Sequence record: MG673519.1
DNA from: Escherichia phage LAMP
Strand: one strand, 5' to 3'
DNA: 64,000 bases
Under the pieces are notes generated by a model that did no database searches, was not told the DNA's origin, and saw only the letters and a list, made by a program, of their open reading frames with translations. Each line of letters opens with the position of its first letter. The first letter of the stretch is position 1. Below, one piece after another: positions 3,413 through 61,446 of this stretch. The position numbers and the translations under genes were made by a program.

Positions 3413-5656
3413 ATGGCTAAGCAAAAATATAGTGAAGAGGTGTTGGACGAGTTACGTGTTGACCTTCAACGTCGTTTTAATTACGCTCAAGGTTACGTTG
3501 ACATGGCTGTTAAGGGCTATGCTCGTGAAGCTTGGGAATATTTCTATGGTAACTTACCTGCACCAGTAACTGCTGGCAGCTCTAGTTGGGTAGATCGTAC
3601 TGTTTGGGAGTCTGTTAACGGTACACTGCAAGATATTATTAACGTATTCTGTTCTGGTGATGAAGCAGTTATTTTCGTAGCTGATAACCAACAGGATTCT
3701 GATGCTGCTGACGTAGCAACTAAATTAGTTAATCAAATTCTTCTGCGTGATAATCCGGGATACAACATTATCTCTTCTGCTGCACAAGAATGTCTGGTTA
3801 CTCGTAACTCTTTTATCAAATATTATTGGGATGAGCACACTTCTACTCAAACTGAAGAAGCTGAAGGTGTACCACCGGAAGCATTGGCTGCATATGTTCA
3901 GGGATTAGAGGCTGGTGGACTCAAGAATCTGGAAGTCTTCACTGAAGAAAATGAAGATGGTACAGTTGATGTTAAAGTTACTTATGAACAAACTGTTAAA
4001 CGTGTGAAAGTTGAATATGTTCCTTCAGAGCAAATCTTTGTTGACGAACATGCTACCTCTTTTGCAGATGCACAATATTTCTGTCATCGTGTACGTCGTT
4101 CTAAAGAAGATCTGGTTGCTATGGGCTTCCCTAAAGATGAGATTGAAGCATTCAACGACTGGACAGATACGATGGATACTACTCAATCTACAGTTGCTTG
4201 GTCTCGTACTGACTGGCGTCAGGACATTGATGCTGACATTGGTACAGATACCGAAGATATCGCTTCTATGGTTTGGGTTTATGAGCACTACATCCGTACT
4301 GGTGTTCTAGATAAGAATAAAGAGTCTAAACTCTATCAGGTTATTCAAGCTGGTGAGCATATTCTTCACACTGAAGAAGTAACTCATATTCCGTTTGTAA
4401 CCTTCTGCCCATATCCGATTCCGGGTTCCTTCTATGGTCAGTCAGTCTATGACATTACGAAAGATATTCAGGATTTACGTACCGCGTTAGTTCGTGGTTA
4501 TATTGATAATGTCAACAATGCTAACTATGGTCGATACAAAGCACTCGTTGGTGCATACGATCGTCGCTCTCTGCTTGATAATCGTCCCGGTGGAGTGGTT
4601 GAAATGGAACGTCAGGACGCTATTGACCTGTTCCCATACCATAACCTACCTCAAGGTATTGATGGCCTATTAGGTATGTCTGAGGAGCTTAAAGAGACAC
4701 GTACTGGTGTAACTAAACTTGGCATGGGTATCAACCCTGACGTGTTTAAGAATGATAACGCTTATGCAACTGTAGGCTTGATGATGAATGCTGCACAGAA
4801 CCGCCTCCGTATGGTATGTCGTAATATTGCTCACAACGGCATGGTTGAATTGATGCGTGGTATTTACAACCTTGTCAGAGAAAACGGTGAAGTTCCTATT
4901 GAGGTACAAACCCCTCGCGGTATGGTTCAGGTAAATCCGAAACAATTACCAGCTCGTCACAATCTTCAAGTTGTGGTAGCTATCTCTCCTAATGAGAAAG
5001 CAGAACGTGCACAGAAATTAATTAGCTTGAAACAGCTGATTGCAGCAGATGCACAGTTAGCACCTCTCTTTGGTTTGGAGCAAGACCGTTACATGACTGC
5101 ACAGATCTTTGAGTTGATGGGTATTAAGGACACTCATAAGTACTTACTGCCTCTGGAACAGTATCAGCCTCCTGAGCCGTCTCCGATGGAAATCCTCCAG
5201 CTCGAGATGACTAAAGCACAGGTTGAGAATGTACAGGCTTCCTCTCAGAAAATGATTGCTGATGCATTCGACCAACGTGAACGTACTACATTTGAACAGC
5301 AGAGAGCTGCGGATGAGTTAAGTCTGCGTCAGGAAGAGTTGCAGTTCAAGCAAGAAAATGCAGCAGATGCTATGACTCTGGAAAACCGTAAAGAAGATAA
5401 CAATGCAACTCTGGAACAAGCTAAGCACAAGTTAGCTCTTATGCAACAGCAGGTCCGTCAGTATGAGTCTGTACTGAAAGAATTGCAGATGGTTATGGAG
5501 CATCAGGTAGACCAAGAGAAGATTGTTCAGCAATTTCGTGTTCAGGATAAAACTTTGGAACTCCAAAAGAAAGAAGCTAATGTAACTAAGAAAGAGCAAC
5601 AAGCCTCTCTCAAAGATTCACGGATTCCAGGCAAACGTCTTGGAAGTAAAAAGTAA
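3413..5656 (+). CDS. Portal protein
   Basis: 747 aa directly after terminase; size, position and C-terminal coiled-coil/charged tail typical of portal proteins. Confidence 0.8.
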   Translation: MAKQKYSEEVLDELRVDLQRRFNYAQGYVDMAVKGYAREAWEYFYGNLPAPVTAGSSSWVDRTVWESVNGTLQDIINVFCSGDEAVIFVADNQQDSDAADVATKLVNQILLRDNPGYNIISSAAQECLVTRNSFIKYYWDEHTSTQTEEAEGVPPEALAAYVQGLEAGGLKNLEVFTEENEDGTVDVKVTYEQTVKRVKVEYVPSEQIFVDEHATSFADAQYFCHRVRRSKEDLVAMGFPKDEIEAFNDWTDTMDTTQSTVAWSRTDWRQDIDADIGTDTEDIASMVWVYEHYIRTGVLDKNKESKLYQVIQAGEHILHTEEVTHIPFVTFCPYPIPGSFYGQSVYDITKDIQDLRTALVRGYIDNVNNANYGRYKALVGAYDRRSLLDNRPGGVVEMERQDAIDLFPYHNLPQGIDGLLGMSEELKETRTGVTKLGMGINPDVFKNDNAYATVGLMMNAAQNRLRMVCRNIAHNGMVELMRGIYNLVRENGEVPIEVQTPRGMVQVNPKQLPARHNLQVVVAISPNEKAERAQKLISLKQLIAADAQLAPLFGLEQDRYMTAQIFELMGIKDTHKYLLPLEQYQPPEPSPMEILQLEMTKAQVENVQASSQKMIADAFDQRERTTFEQQRAADELSLRQEELQFKQENAADAMTLENRKEDNNATLEQAKHKLALMQQQVRQYESVLKELQMVMEHQVDQEKIVQQFRVQDKTLELQKKEANVTKKEQQASLKDSRIPGKRLGSKK

Positions 5657-36461: not shown

Positions 36462-36943
36462 TTAGTGTGTATGCATCCAGTTTAACCCAATCTGACAATC
36501 AGAAGCCAGAGGACATTCCATGTTCAAGTACTCACCAGCCTTCTTAACACAAAGCTCGGTGTACTCTTTGAGTTTCTGTACATCATTACGGTTCACTGAG
36601 AACTGGCCCTCATCGTGCATATCAATTACCTTAGCACAACGAACTCCATCTTTCTCAATCCACTTGTTAAGGAACATCATAGCATATTTCATAACAACAG
36701 CACCAGCACATTGTAGGAGTGTGTTAAGGGCTTTATGAACCATAACCTTACCAGTGGCATCCCGTCTCATTGTAATCTTACGACCATCAACGCCAATCAA
36801 ATACCCTTGAGCAGCTTTCTCTGTCATACGATCAATGAGGATTGCAATACAAGGATTCTCTGCCAAGAAGCGTGCTCGCATCACTGAACCTTCGTCAGCT
36901 CCACCACCTACGATTGAACCAAGCTTAGCATCACCTGCCCCAT
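36462..36943 (-). CDS. DNA polymerase (family A, T7 gp5-like), exon 2 (palm C-terminal part, motif C)
   Basis: Frame open upstream of the track start (36884) to about 36943; contains VIDMHDEGQF (motif C-like). Joining to exon 1 reconstitutes ...RDNAKTFIYAFN|YGAGDAKLGSIVGG..., matching the motif B region of T7-type polymerases. Confidence 0.7.
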
Positions 36944-37247
36944 CAATAGTTCAAGCAAAGGCGCTACTCTTTGCTCCGTTCTCTTATGAACTGCTTACAG
37001 TTTCCTGTAAGATCGGACTATATCTTCATCTCCACCTTTACGTGCTGAGAGACAGGCGCTTCCGTAACACTTGTTACGTACTCCCTTCCGGGATAGTCTC
37101 TGAACTTTCCGTGACACAAACTTTTCTACATAGATCATTGATGTTTATGTCACGGCTTAGCTGCTGATTGGCATATCTTTCGACTTAGCTTTCCAGCAAT
37201 TCACCTGTTTTGCTTCTGCACATTTCTATGCAGTGAACCAATTATTT
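36944..37247 (-). ncRNA. Group I self-splicing intron (ORF-less, about 300 nt) within the DNA polymerase gene
   Basis: On the minus strand the core elements appear in order: P-like AATTGCTGGAAAG, Q-like AATCAGCAGC, R GTTCAGAGACTA, S AAGATATAGTCC. The upstream exon ends in U and the intron ends in G. Boundaries are +/-2 nt. Confidence 0.7.
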
Positions 37248-38610
37248 AGTTAAAGGCATATATAAACGTCTTCGCATTATCACGAGTAGGAAGACCAGCA
37301 AGTTTCTGGTTGTGGGAGTGGATATCACCTTCAAGAAGGATATCACGATACATAATAGCAGAAGCTAAACCACGTTCTGCCAGAGCTTTCTTAGCTGGAT
37401 TATTCTCTTCGATTGCTTCAGCAAGCATATCCCTACACTCTTTAATGAGGTAGTGAGCGAGCATACGAAGTTCAAGTCCAGAACCATCATACCCTAAGAA
37501 TACTTCTTTACCAGCGGGTATGTAATATTTGTAAGCACCTACAGGCTTATCTTTCTTCCCCGGCTTACCTTTCTCGTAAATTACGTTAGTACCTTTTCGT
37601 ATATAACAACCATCAGGAACAACGTTAGTAATAACGAAAGGACGAGAGTGATCACTGTCTGAATTATAGTCAGACTCAAACAAACTGCGACACTCATGAC
37701 CAAACAAACCACGGGAGGGAATATTAACCACGATACGATGTTTGAATCGAAAAGTTGGCGTAGCGCAGCTGTTAGCTTCTGCCGAAAGTTTACCATCTTC
37801 GCGTTCCTTTGCTATGAGTCCACTGATAAGACCTAGCCTGTGAGCCGCTACAACGCGCCTCTTAAGCAAACTTCCAACACTCCCTAGCTCGCCCCCTAAC
37901 CCTTCTTCAAGAGTCTCCTCGAGGTTTGTAGGAGCTGTAGGCCACTTGTTTGAGGTAGCTAGTGCTATCTTAATCTCATCAAACGTGATAGGTCTACGTC
38001 GGTTAGGGTTTAAACCTAAACCAAACACATAAGCCTTCATATAGTTCTTAGTCTTAAACCTAAAATGCTTCTCTAAGAACCTCCTAATATCTGCGTCAAC
38101 CATCTCGGCTGTCTGCTTCTGTTTAGCATTACCTCGCATCCAAGCTGAATACCACGCTTGGTATGTTCCATACTTTCGTATATCTTTCTTGATTTCAAAA
38201 GTATTCCAAGGTTTCTTTGATACGTTAAACTCTGGAGGAAGAAAACCCTCATCCATAAGGGCTTCTTTAACTCGTGCATCTTTCGATGGGTCAAAGTCCA
38301 CGTATTCAACACAGGTGAATGCTCCACCAATGTCTTCTCTCTTAAGGCCAACTCTATCACAATAGGCTTGAGGCCACTTCTGTAAAGCTCCAGACTTCTT
38401 AAATGGCTTCATATAAGTAGAGCCATCTAGTCTCATCTTAGGTAAGAGAGGGATCAGTTCTTTGTCGATATTAACAATAATCTCTTTAAGGAGGTGAACA
38501 TACCACCGAGCATTTCTTCGGTTGAAACTCACTCCGTGCTTCGCTTGCTTAGAGATTATATCAGCGACAGTCATCTCTGTCAAAAATGGGAGAGCGTCCG
38601 GGTTGCTCAC
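37246..38610 (-). CDS. DNA polymerase (family A, T7 gp5-like), exon 1 (through motif B); no 3'-5' exonuclease domain
   Basis: 454 aa; motif A-like LGYDGSGLELRMLAHY and motif B-like RDNAKTFIYAF; the stop codon lies at the intron junction. GTG start in the track. My base-level indexing of the 3' end disagreed with the track by 1 nt, so I kept the track coordinates. Confidence 0.8.
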   Translation of the reverse strand: MSNPDALPFLTEMTVADIISKQAKHGVSFNRRNARWYVHLLKEIIVNIDKELIPLLPKMRLDGSTYMKPFKKSGALQKWPQAYCDRVGLKREDIGGAFTCVEYVDFDPSKDARVKEALMDEGFLPPEFNVSKKPWNTFEIKKDIRKYGTYQAWYSAWMRGNAKQKQTAEMVDADIRRFLEKHFRFKTKNYMKAYVFGLGLNPNRRRPITFDEIKIALATSNKWPTAPTNLEETLEEGLGGELGSVGSLLKRRVVAAHRLGLISGLIAKEREDGKLSAEANSCATPTFRFKHRIVVNIPSRGLFGHECRSLFESDYNSDSDHSRPFVITNVVPDGCYIRKGTNVIYEKGKPGKKDKPVGAYKYYIPAGKEVFLGYDGSGLELRMLAHYLIKECRDMLAEAIEENNPAKKALAERGLASAIMYRDILLEGDIHSHNQKLAGLPTRDNAKTFIYAFN

Positions 38611-39993: not shown

Positions 39994-40114
39994 TATTCAT
40001 GCAGGTGTCTTCATTGAACTCTTCACACTCAAAGCATGCTCGTTCGATATTTTTGTAGAAGTCGATGATTGCTGAACCATCACCACAATCTCGGATAACT
40101 AGAGCTACTTGCAC
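39929..40114 (-). CDS. Hypothetical Cys-containing small protein
   Basis: ORF track, 61 aa. Confidence 0.35.
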   Translation of the reverse strand: MQVALVIRDCGDGSAIIDFYKNIERACFECEEFNEDTCMNNGEPTIIDVPDDFVPPGGWSE

Positions 40115-40854
40115 TTCTCTTGTCCTTTTTCCATTGCTTTAACAATAGCTTTACAGAAACCAGAACGAACAATGTCATCTGATTCACCATCTACAATCTC
40201 AGCGAACTCATACAGATCATGTTCATCAATAAAGTTAGTAGCCCAAGTAAGACCACTCTCACGACCACGCATGTCATGCTGGTTAGTATCACCCATGCAG
40301 AACAGTTGAGAGGTTTCTCCCAATCGAGTCATGATTGAGAAGGCTTCATCTTTAGTGGTGTTCTGGAATTCATCAACAATAACAACAGCATCATTGAAAG
40401 AACGACCACGGAGATATTCCAGAGGTACGAACTCAATATTACTGTTACCAAGCTGGCATTCATAGAACCCCTTACCATATCGCTGAGTAATAACATCGAT
40501 GATAGGCATCAGGTATGGTTCAAACTTCTCACGCATCCCTCCCGGAAGTAACCCAAGAGAGTTGCCCATACCAACTGAAGGACGGCTAAGAATGATCTTC
40601 TGAATCTTACCACTCTTCAGAGCATCGATAACTGTAGAAGTGATTACATAGGTCTTACCACAGCCCGCAGGAGCGTCTGTGAACACAACTTGCTTAGTCT
40701 TAATGGCATTTAGCAGCTCAGACTGAAACTGGTTCTGAGGGACTACAGGCTTTGCTAAAACCACCTCTTCATACTCTCGTTTACCCTTACGAGTGACAAG
40801 TGCTTCCCGACGAAGGTCTTTCCGTGATTCTTTCCGTGATTGACGACGACTCAT
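40105..40854 (-). CDS. phoH: PhoH-like ATPase
   Basis: 249 aa; Walker A ...DAPAGCGKTYV... in the context typical of PhoH-family proteins. Confidence 0.8.
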   Translation of the reverse strand: MSRRQSRKESRKDLRREALVTRKGKREYEEVVLAKPVVPQNQFQSELLNAIKTKQVVFTDAPAGCGKTYVITSTVIDALKSGKIQKIILSRPSVGMGNSLGLLPGGMREKFEPYLMPIIDVITQRYGKGFYECQLGNSNIEFVPLEYLRGRSFNDAVVIVDEFQNTTKDEAFSIMTRLGETSQLFCMGDTNQHDMRGRESGLTWATNFIDEHDLYEFAEIVDGESDDIVRSGFCKAIVKAMEKGQEKCK

Positions 40855-61370: not shown

Positions 61371-61446
61371 TGGTGCGCCCTACAGGATTTGAACCTGTAA
61401 CCAATAGCTTAGAAGGCTACTGCTCTATCCATTGAGCTAAGAGCGC
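61371..61446 (-). tRNA. tRNA-Arg (anticodon UCU)
   Basis: Minus-strand sequence GCGCTCT..AGAGC..GTAGC-CTTCTAA-GCTAT..GGTTCAAATCC..AGGGCGC-ACCA: 7-bp acceptor stem, anticodon loop CU-UCU-AA, T-loop GGTTCAAATCC, encoded CCA end, 76 nt. Confidence 0.85.

Follow-up and report, generated by a model that had tools for sequence, protein, structure and literature searches.

Group I introns have been known in phage DNA polymerase genes since the description of SPO1. For the T-even introns (td, nrdB, and nrdD), variants that lack an open reading frame (ORF) or carry a decayed ORF, together with co-conversion of exon sequence, are well documented, reportedly by Sandegren and Sjöberg in 2004 and in the homing cycle of Goddard and Burt. 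In E. coli Pol I numbering, the phage polymerase intron sites listed in one report are 674 (SPO1, SP82, Bastille, and Pf-WMP3), 676 (phiL7), and 881 (ΦI and W31) (PMC3428280), and according to a 2025 survey such introns are common in Bastillevirinae (PMC11878797). Here, we analyze a 64,000-nucleotide (nt) stretch of DNA from Escherichia phage LAMP (sequence record MG673519.1; ‘the window’), in which the DNA polymerase gene, on the minus strand, is split by a compact group I intron. The window comes from a phiEco32-like (Gordonclarkvirinae) coliphage and across 25 kb shares 97.8-97.9% identity with the BASEL phages Bas92, Bas93, and Bas94; the phage collection that we searched did not include the window phage itself. 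Literature searches on KBNP1711, Gordonclarkvirinae, Kuravirus, and phiEco32 found no published description of Gordonclarkvirinae polymerase introns, and the wording of the BASEL paper goes no further than "homing endonuclease insertions". The mechanism is a textbook one, and the intron is an ordinary example of a well-known selfish phage element.

The polymerase gene appears in the window ORF list as two adjacent minus-strand ORFs, of 454 amino acids (aa) (37246..38610) and of 140 aa counted from an internal GTG (36462..36884). The stop of the first and the first start codon of the second are 361 nt apart, and the intron proper is 304 nt. An initial annotation, made from the letters alone, had identified both ORFs and had placed motif B in the first; the ORFs stand, but the intron splits motif B. 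Exon 1, which has the same start codon as the collinear Bas92 coding sequence (CDS), contains motif A (FLGYDGSGLELRMLAHY), the first half of motif B (RDNAKTFIYAFN), and base 1 of the Tyr455 codon; exon 2 contains the remainder of motif B (YGAGDAK) and motif C (VIDMHDEGQF). Exon 2 matches Pfam DNA_pol_A (E 3.9e-15), and exon 1, searched alone against Pfam, gave no family match. An alignment of the joined protein to T7 gp5 chains, a check proposed with the initial annotation, gave E 3e-33 and was gapless over T7 residues 496-704, spanning the junction and reaching the C-terminus, with motif A (DGSGLELR), motif B (RDNAKTFIYAFNYGAGD), and motif C (HDE) aligning in order and with the intron-split codon, Tyr455 (phase 1), aligning with T7 Tyr530. 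T7 Y526 is known to correspond to E. coli Pol I F762, so that T7 Y530 corresponds to the O-helix Tyr766 of Pol I. The polymerase protein has no N-terminal 3'-5' exonuclease domain. By these alignments, the host gene is that of a T7 gp5-like family A DNA polymerase.

A covariance-model search, likewise proposed as a check, matched Rfam family RF00028 at 37257..36994 on the minus strand over model positions 1-253 of 253, with 100.8 bits (gathering score, 50 bits) and E 6e-25; relaxing the cutoff to E <= 0.01 revealed no other group I signal in the window. The last base of the 5' exon is T37248 (...GCCTTTAACT/, with a slash marking the splice junction here and below), at which the model alignment places the conserved splice-site U; this U and intron G9 make a U·G wobble in P1, and the U·G is invariant in four variants. 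The intron ends ...CTATTG, with G36944 as the terminal guanosine (ωG), every variant ends …UUG, and the 3' exon begins at A36943. Splicing in silico (38610..37248 joined to 36943..36462) yields an 1845-nt CDS for 614 aa, the same length as the Bas92 gene, which is uninterrupted, is exactly 1845 nt long, and is collinear with the spliced window CDS with 21 mismatches (98.9% identity). The ligated exons are predicted to read …GCCTTTAACT/ATGGGGCAGG…, and the protein at the junction reads ...TRDNAKTFIYAFN-Y-GAGDAKLG (onward, …TRDNAKTFIYAFN-Y-GAGDAKLGSIVGG…). Alternative 3' splice sites (for example, after ...ATTGATG) lose one residue relative to T7 gp5 and Bas92, and we rejected them. Because the CDS length equals that of the Bas92 gene and the T7 gp5 alignment is gapless across the junction, the intron boundaries are exact; the splice sites of the initial annotation, after ...TTTAACT and after ...CTATTG, were exactly right, as was its in-frame junction FIYAFN/YGAGDAK. 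We conclude that positions 37247..36944 of the minus strand are confirmed as a group I intron that splits the polymerase gene.

The intron has the structure expected of a group I ribozyme, with helices P1 to P9.1 (drawn from the Rfam alignment and inspection; Table 1) that include P3, P4, P5, and P6, and with GAAA tetraloops in P2, L5, and P9. An unconstrained minimum-free-energy (MFE) fold has a z-score of -5.0, is matched in energy by none of 100 shuffles, and recovers P2, P3, P4, P5, P6a, P7.1, P7.2, P8, P9, and P9.1. Covariation was assessed in four distinct ribozymes, comprising the window intron and three diverged copies at the same site, with the ORF block removed before alignment. The diverged copies were found through homologues of the intron's endonuclease, at loci L006-L010 (introns 94% identical to that of the window), L011-L013, and L014 (both more distant). 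For 83 pairs counted over the four copies, 99.1% of cells form a standard pair, and every helix, those of the P3/P7 pseudoknot included, is 92-100% paired. Pairs changed on both sides number 16 of the 83, as compared to 0-2 in structures slid by ±1-3 columns, and none of 500 shuffles reaches the observed values. Compensatory changes occur in P1, P2, P3, P7.2, P8, P9, and P9.1, with the compensatory pairs numbering 4 of 6 in P7.2, 4 of 8 in P9.1, and 3 of 7 in P9; the P1 pair beside the U·G covaries from A-U to C-G in L011 and L014, and P2 has one compensatory pair and one single-sided covarying pair. P4, P6, P7, and P7.1 are invariant and thus uninformative on covariation, and the P6a helix of L014, misaligned by MAFFT, is by eye a perfect 12-bp stem. 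The compensatory changes indicate that selection acts on the intron fold, and they support helices P1-P9.1. Subgroup IA2 is recognized by P7.1 and P7.2 between P7 and P3', joined by G-U-A (PMC3428280); the window intron has P7.1-GUA-P7.2 and therefore belongs to subgroup IA2. RF00028, CDS restoration, the T7 gp5 alignment, and covariation together bear out, in silico, the core of the initial proposal, in which a T7 gp5-like family A polymerase gene is interrupted by a compact group I intron that lacks an endonuclease gene.

Table 1. Positions of the polymerase exons, the intron and its helices, the traces of homing, and other polymerase introns. Unprefixed positions are those of the window; CDS, coding-sequence numbering of the spliced window gene. 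Locus codes: L001, KBNP1711; L002, Bas89; L004, Bas94; L005, PE006; L020, Bas93; L021, vB_Ab_1137_KEN_01; L022, cr128_1.
Feature	Location	Strand	Details and basis
Exon 1, DNA polymerase	37248..38610	-	CDS nt 1-1363; GTG start; ORF list, Bas92 collinearity, T7 gp5 alignment
Exon 2, DNA polymerase	36462..36943	-	CDS nt 1364-1845 including stop; Pfam, T7 gp5 alignment, Bas92 collinearity
Group I intron, subgroup IA2	36944..37247	-	304 nt; Rfam RF00028, exact CDS restoration, covariation, MFE
P1	37236..37251	-	Exon AACU and intron AA pair with internal guide sequence UUGGUU (intron nt 7-12)
P2	37216..37233	-	7-bp hairpin, GAAA tetraloop; intron nt 15-32; MFE fold
P6/P6a	37104..37161	-	Long 13-bp hairpin; intron nt 87-144; stem found by MFE fold
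Catalytic core (P7, P7.1, P7.2, P3 3' strand, P8)	37016..37098	-	Rfam alignment, covariation
P7	37098..37094 with 37020..37016	-	GACUA with UAGUC
P7.1	37093..37082	-	UCCC-GGAA-GGGA; GUA linker after
P7.2	37078..37063	-	CGUAAC-AAGU-GUUACG
P3 3' strand	37058..37052	-	
P8	37050..37029	-	
Peripheral 3' domain	36953..37011	-	P9, P9.1a, P9.1; MFE fold, covariation
P9	37011..36994	-	GAAA tetraloop
P9.1a	36991..36978	-	Small hairpin
P9.1	36976..36953	-	
Endonuclease gene remnant	37074..37137	-	Last base of codon 154, D155-T174 (DLCRKVCVTESSETIPEGST), TAA; overlaps P6a 3' strand, P7, P7.1, P7.2
Exon co-conversion tract	36936..37276 (37276..37248 + 36943..36936)	-	CDS nt 1335-1371, ~37 nt; informative sites
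Intron after CDS nt 1346	L011-L014 (metagenomic)		Tandem with site-1363 intron, 17-nt micro-exon TATCTACGCATTTAACT between
Intron after CDS nt 1351 (Tyr451, T7 Y526)	Bas93, Bas94 (L004 2442-3147; L020)		Unrelated; 706 nt; Pfam Endonuclease_7 ORF
Intron at equivalent of CDS nt 1356	L021 1987-2643, T7-like Acinetobacter phage vB_Ab_1137_KEN_01		Between T7 A527 and N528 codons (splice-site reading)
Intron after CDS nt 1363	Window, KBNP1711, Bas89, L006-L014		Intron under study
Intron at ~CDS nt 1691/1692 (VIDMH/DEGQF, motif C)	PE006 (L005 2782-3389), L006 (~3985-4591), L007		HNH_3 ORF

The same intron occurs in only two phages of the collection, KBNP1711 (781 nt) and Bas89 (780 nt), where it is inserted at the same site and is identical to the window intron at 304 of 304 positions outside a block of 477 and 476 nt, respectively. 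At the 5' end of the window intron 110 nt, and at its 3' end 194 nt, match L001 and L002 at 100% identity, and because 110 + 194 = 304, the difference is one clean block with no microhomology at the junction, which lies in the P6a loop between A37138 and T37137. The block supplies the ribosome-binding site (AAGGAGG), the ATG, and the greater part of the ORF for a 174-aa endonuclease; this ORF extends 63 nt beyond the block, across the 3' strand of P6a and then P7 and P7.1, and terminates within P7.2; the window keeps 20 of its codons. The endonuclease matches no Pfam family and belongs to PHROG 1035 (phrog_1035; E 1.2e-43). Queried against the window with tblastn, the Bas89 endonuclease found a sole fragment (37136..37077, codons 155-174 of 174, E 1.5e-8); thus the intron has no intact homing endonuclease, and the window has no other copy of an endonuclease of the Bas89 type. 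The ORF-carrying copies score below the Rfam gathering score, their split cores reaching 26-44 bits and only in permissive E-value mode, as compared to 100.8 bits for the compact window copy; the missing gathering match in relatives is therefore not evidence of intron absence.

The remnant residues Cys157 and Val160 are invariant across the endonuclease family, including the homologues P0007 and P0009; the former lies within a tRNA cluster, the latter is surrounded by unrelated genes, and neither has a group I signal nearby, so that both are free-standing. All diverged lineages (L006, L011, and L014) hold the ORF at the same position, and in that tree the window copy coincides with a single tip. 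The presence of the ORF in all diverged lineages, the 20 in-frame codons that are kept, and the invariance of Cys157 and Val160 together show that the intron once had the ORF and lost it: the ORF-less state arose by recent deletion from an endonuclease-carrying intron and is not ancestral. The exact 31-nt pattern of the ORF-less junction had no match in IMG/VR or in JGI metagenomes, and the phage collection contained no ORF-less copy. The initial annotation had described a spacer of about 300 nt without an ORF on that strand; the intron is 304 nt, and the strand is not strictly free of ORFs, carrying the 20-codon remnant and a 47-aa ORF (37138..36995) that runs through the ribozyme core. We rejected the latter as a gene: its ATG arises from the deletion junction, neither a ribosome-binding site nor a PHROG family match accompanies it, and it is probably meaningless. 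In KBNP1711, the block (L001 2611-3087) is 1 nt longer than in Bas89 (L002 2611-3086), and RefSeq calls a shorter, later-starting endonuclease ORF (L001 2699..3151 vs. L002 2626..3150), which suggests a frameshift in the KBNP1711 endonuclease, a gene that may be decaying there too.

The exons flanking the intron carry a footprint of its transfer. In its exons the window shares 98.9% identity with Bas92 but just 81% with KBNP1711 and Bas89, whereas its intron is 100% identical to those of the latter two. At 362 informative sites, defined as the CDS positions differing between Bas92 and KBNP1711, the window base is of Bas92 type almost throughout, with exceptions that cluster at CDS 1335-1371, where 8 of 9 consecutive informative sites are of KBNP1711/Bas89 type and bracket the insertion after nt 1363 (P ~6e-10 for clustering, corrected for position). 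All the changes are synonymous, the window's flank state is common to intron-bearing alleles, and the other state is common to six alleles that lack the window's intron (Bas92, Bas93, Bas94, SGF2, Paul, and PE006). L006, an independent intron-bearing lineage, shares the inner tract only (1353-1371), and a second donor-type patch comprises two sites, 36855 and 36852 (CDS 1452 and 1455). The tract matches the classical co-conversion signature of homing, with the intron probably passing from a KBNP1711-like donor into a Bas92-like genome.

We consider it very likely that the window contains a group IA2 self-splicing intron in an essential polymerase gene, that the intron arrived by endonuclease-driven homing, and that its ORF was deleted before or after that transfer. 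Several points weigh against this view. Splicing is inferred; P10 is weak, with ~2 bp at best between the 3' exon AU and the L1 loop (by inspection); the covariation sample comprises four distinct sequences only, although we regard its signal as unambiguous; the ORF-less form comes from a single sequence, for which an artefact of assembly or propagation is conceivable; and the donor was not exactly KBNP1711 or Bas89, from which the window differs at CDS 1344 and by a unique T at 1332. One alternative is that the intron is a dead, non-splicing relic, with the gene specifying two associating polypeptides (454 aa and ~140 aa) or being a pseudogene in a defective or misassembled genome. Split polymerases occur in nature, and a downstream ORF from an internal GTG (36884..36462) exists. 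Yet the core elements are all intact and identical to copies in KBNP1711 and Bas89, which are isolated, plaque-forming phages, the compensatory evolution reflects selection on the fold, intron-less relatives encode one continuous polymerase protein, and a split here would cut the O-helix in motif B and drop the residues YGAGDAKLGSIVGGGADEGSV conserved in T7 gp5; we regard a dead relic as extremely improbable.

The relation between the two intron forms could be read in the opposite direction, with the ORF-less intron being ancestral and the endonuclease gene having invaded the P6a loop later in the KBNP1711/Bas89 lineage. Such invasion of pre-existing introns is reportedly an accepted pathway, set out by Bonocora and Shub in 2009, and the clean, microhomology-free edges of the block and its own ribosome-binding site and ATG are what an invading cassette would bring. 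This order of events is nonetheless unlikely: it places at the root a form found at one tip of a tree whose diverged lineages all hold the ORF, and it requires that an earlier loop encoded, by chance, 20 in-frame codons of the ORF, including two residues invariant even in free-standing homologues. The donor-type flanks could likewise have an origin other than homing, either selection for pairing in P1 and P10, in which exon bases at the splice sites do pair, or ordinary mosaic recombination unrelated to the intron, in phages that are generally mosaic and at a locus with a second donor-type patch. P1, however, uses 4-6 nt, and the tract extends 28 nt upstream; the tract is centred on the insertion site, with the clustering given above; its inner part alone is shared by L006, as co-conversion of variable length predicts; and it accompanies a 100%-identical intron across an 81%-identical gene background. 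We consider an origin of the flanks unrelated to homing very unlikely.

Under the favored reading, of a self-splicing and formerly mobile intron, transcription of the polymerase gene would run through the intron, and the intron RNA would fold into P1-P9.1. An external guanosine would attack after exon U37248, in the U·G wobble of P1, and the freed 5' exon would then attack after the terminal G36944, with exon joining restoring the Tyr455 codon and motif B (…TFIYAFNYGAGDAK…) and allowing synthesis of a single 614-aa polymerase; on unspliced RNA, translation would end at a UAA straddling the 5' splice site. As for history, we infer that the intron came into a Bas92-like genome from a KBNP1711/Bas89-like donor by endonuclease-driven homing during co-infection, and that ~37 nt of donor exon sequence came with it. 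The 476-nt P6a-loop block, with the ribosome-binding site and endonuclease codons 1-154, would have been lost cleanly, before or after the transfer, leaving a compact ribozyme predicted to be capable of splicing but not of mobilizing itself.

The window intron has neighbors in related genes. At least four different group I introns occupy insertion points that fall within 17 nt in the motif B coding stretch (Table 1). The introns of Bas93 and Bas94, the first intron of the tandem pairs in L011 and L014 (‘intron A’), and the intron of vB_Ab_1137_KEN_01 resemble the window intron in being group I introns in the O-helix stretch, at most 17 nt from its site, and differ from it in insertion point (1351, 1346, and 1356-equivalent vs. 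1363), in ribozyme, and in endonuclease family. The Bas93/Bas94 intron lies 12 nt upstream of the window's site, at window-equivalent position 37260; Bas92 has no intron at all. In the tandem pairs (L011 1673-3152, L012, L013, and L014 985-2466), each intron has its own endonuclease ORF, the 17-nt micro-exon reads TATCTACGCATTTAACT in L011 and TATATACGCTTTTAACT in L014, and intron A of L014 reaches only 31 bits in Rfam (E 2.4e-4). The intron of vB_Ab_1137_KEN_01 carries an HNH ORF and has a P7-P8 core 75% identical to that of the window intron; GenBank lists the polymerase of this phage as two separate 'DNA polymerase' CDSs. The motif C intron site (window-equivalent ~36615) is empty in the window. 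A similar extra insertion is seen in phages 1-6bf, 1-6af, FH3, and pEC-N1203-2Af.1. We raise, as a doubtful but possible interpretation, that the O-helix stretch is a contested hotspot, in which the ORF-less intron and its co-converted flanks are kept since they destroy the targets of rival endonucleases. If so, the intron would protect the window phage from cleavage and marker exclusion in co-infection with KBNP1711-like or Bas93/94-like phages.

Three further observations concern other loci. In the crAss-like phage cr128_1 (L022, NC_055885, 73757-76913), annotation breaks the gene for the major head protein into three pieces with two endonuclease ORFs between them, and the region around the second endonuclease ORF has a core 75% identical to P7-P8 of the window intron; this capsid gene probably holds a pair of group I introns. 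Within the window, the only other match to an RNA family is a single tRNA gene at 61374-61446 on the minus strand (Rfam, 73.6 bits). A 249-aa ORF at 40105-40854 on the minus strand has a Walker-A-like motif (PAGCGKTY) and probably encodes a PhoH-like protein, judging from a PhoH gene in the same relative position upstream of the L006 polymerase.

Gene callers report this essential polymerase as a pair of ORFs, and recognition of the intron gives the correct 614-aa product. Many GenBank relatives annotate the polymerase as two pieces (for example, KBNP1711 and PE006); the records of Bas89, Bas93, and Bas94 annotate it as a join, in Bas89 a two-piece join around the endonuclease ORF. The window intron leaves the current understanding of group I introns unchanged. 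Its added value lies in the intact-versus-deleted pair, in the readable co-conversion tract, and in the dense O-helix hotspot with multiple introns in easily cultured phages. One step of the homing cycle is captured with unusual clarity, before and after, by KBNP1711/Bas89 and the window, with identical ribozymes, a single clean 476-nt deletion, and a co-conversion tract that can still be read. Together with intron-less Bas92 and with Bas93/94, they constitute a culturable E. coli phage system for homing, endonuclease loss, and intron competition, and the 304-nt form is a natural minimal IA2 ribozyme.

Among described systems, the T-even introns resemble the window intron in being of subgroup IA2, in carrying the ORF in a peripheral loop, in the presence of near-identical introns in more divergent genes, in exon co-conversion, and in having variants with a deleted or truncated endonuclease gene. 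They differ in phage family, in host gene, and in endonuclease family, and the intact and deleted forms described here are separated by a single clean event and by no further substitution. The introns of the T7-like coliphages ΦI and W31, reportedly described by Bonocora and Shub in 2004, share with the window intron the subgroup IA2 and a host gene of T7 gp5 type in an enterobacterial podovirus, and their endonuclease ORF, in P6a and reading into the core, is placed like that of the ORF-carrying relatives of the window intron (PMC3428280). The initial annotation had stated, citing Bonocora and Shub, that introns at the position of the window intron are known in T7-like phages; this was mistaken, in that the ΦI/W31 introns are placed in motif C, at Pol I site 881 (PMC3428280), whereas the window intron lies in motif B, in the codon for T7 Y530. 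On that placement, the motif C position reported for ΦI/W31 is the one occupied by the PE006-type intron, and the window intron, unlike those of ΦI and W31, is without an intact endonuclease gene.

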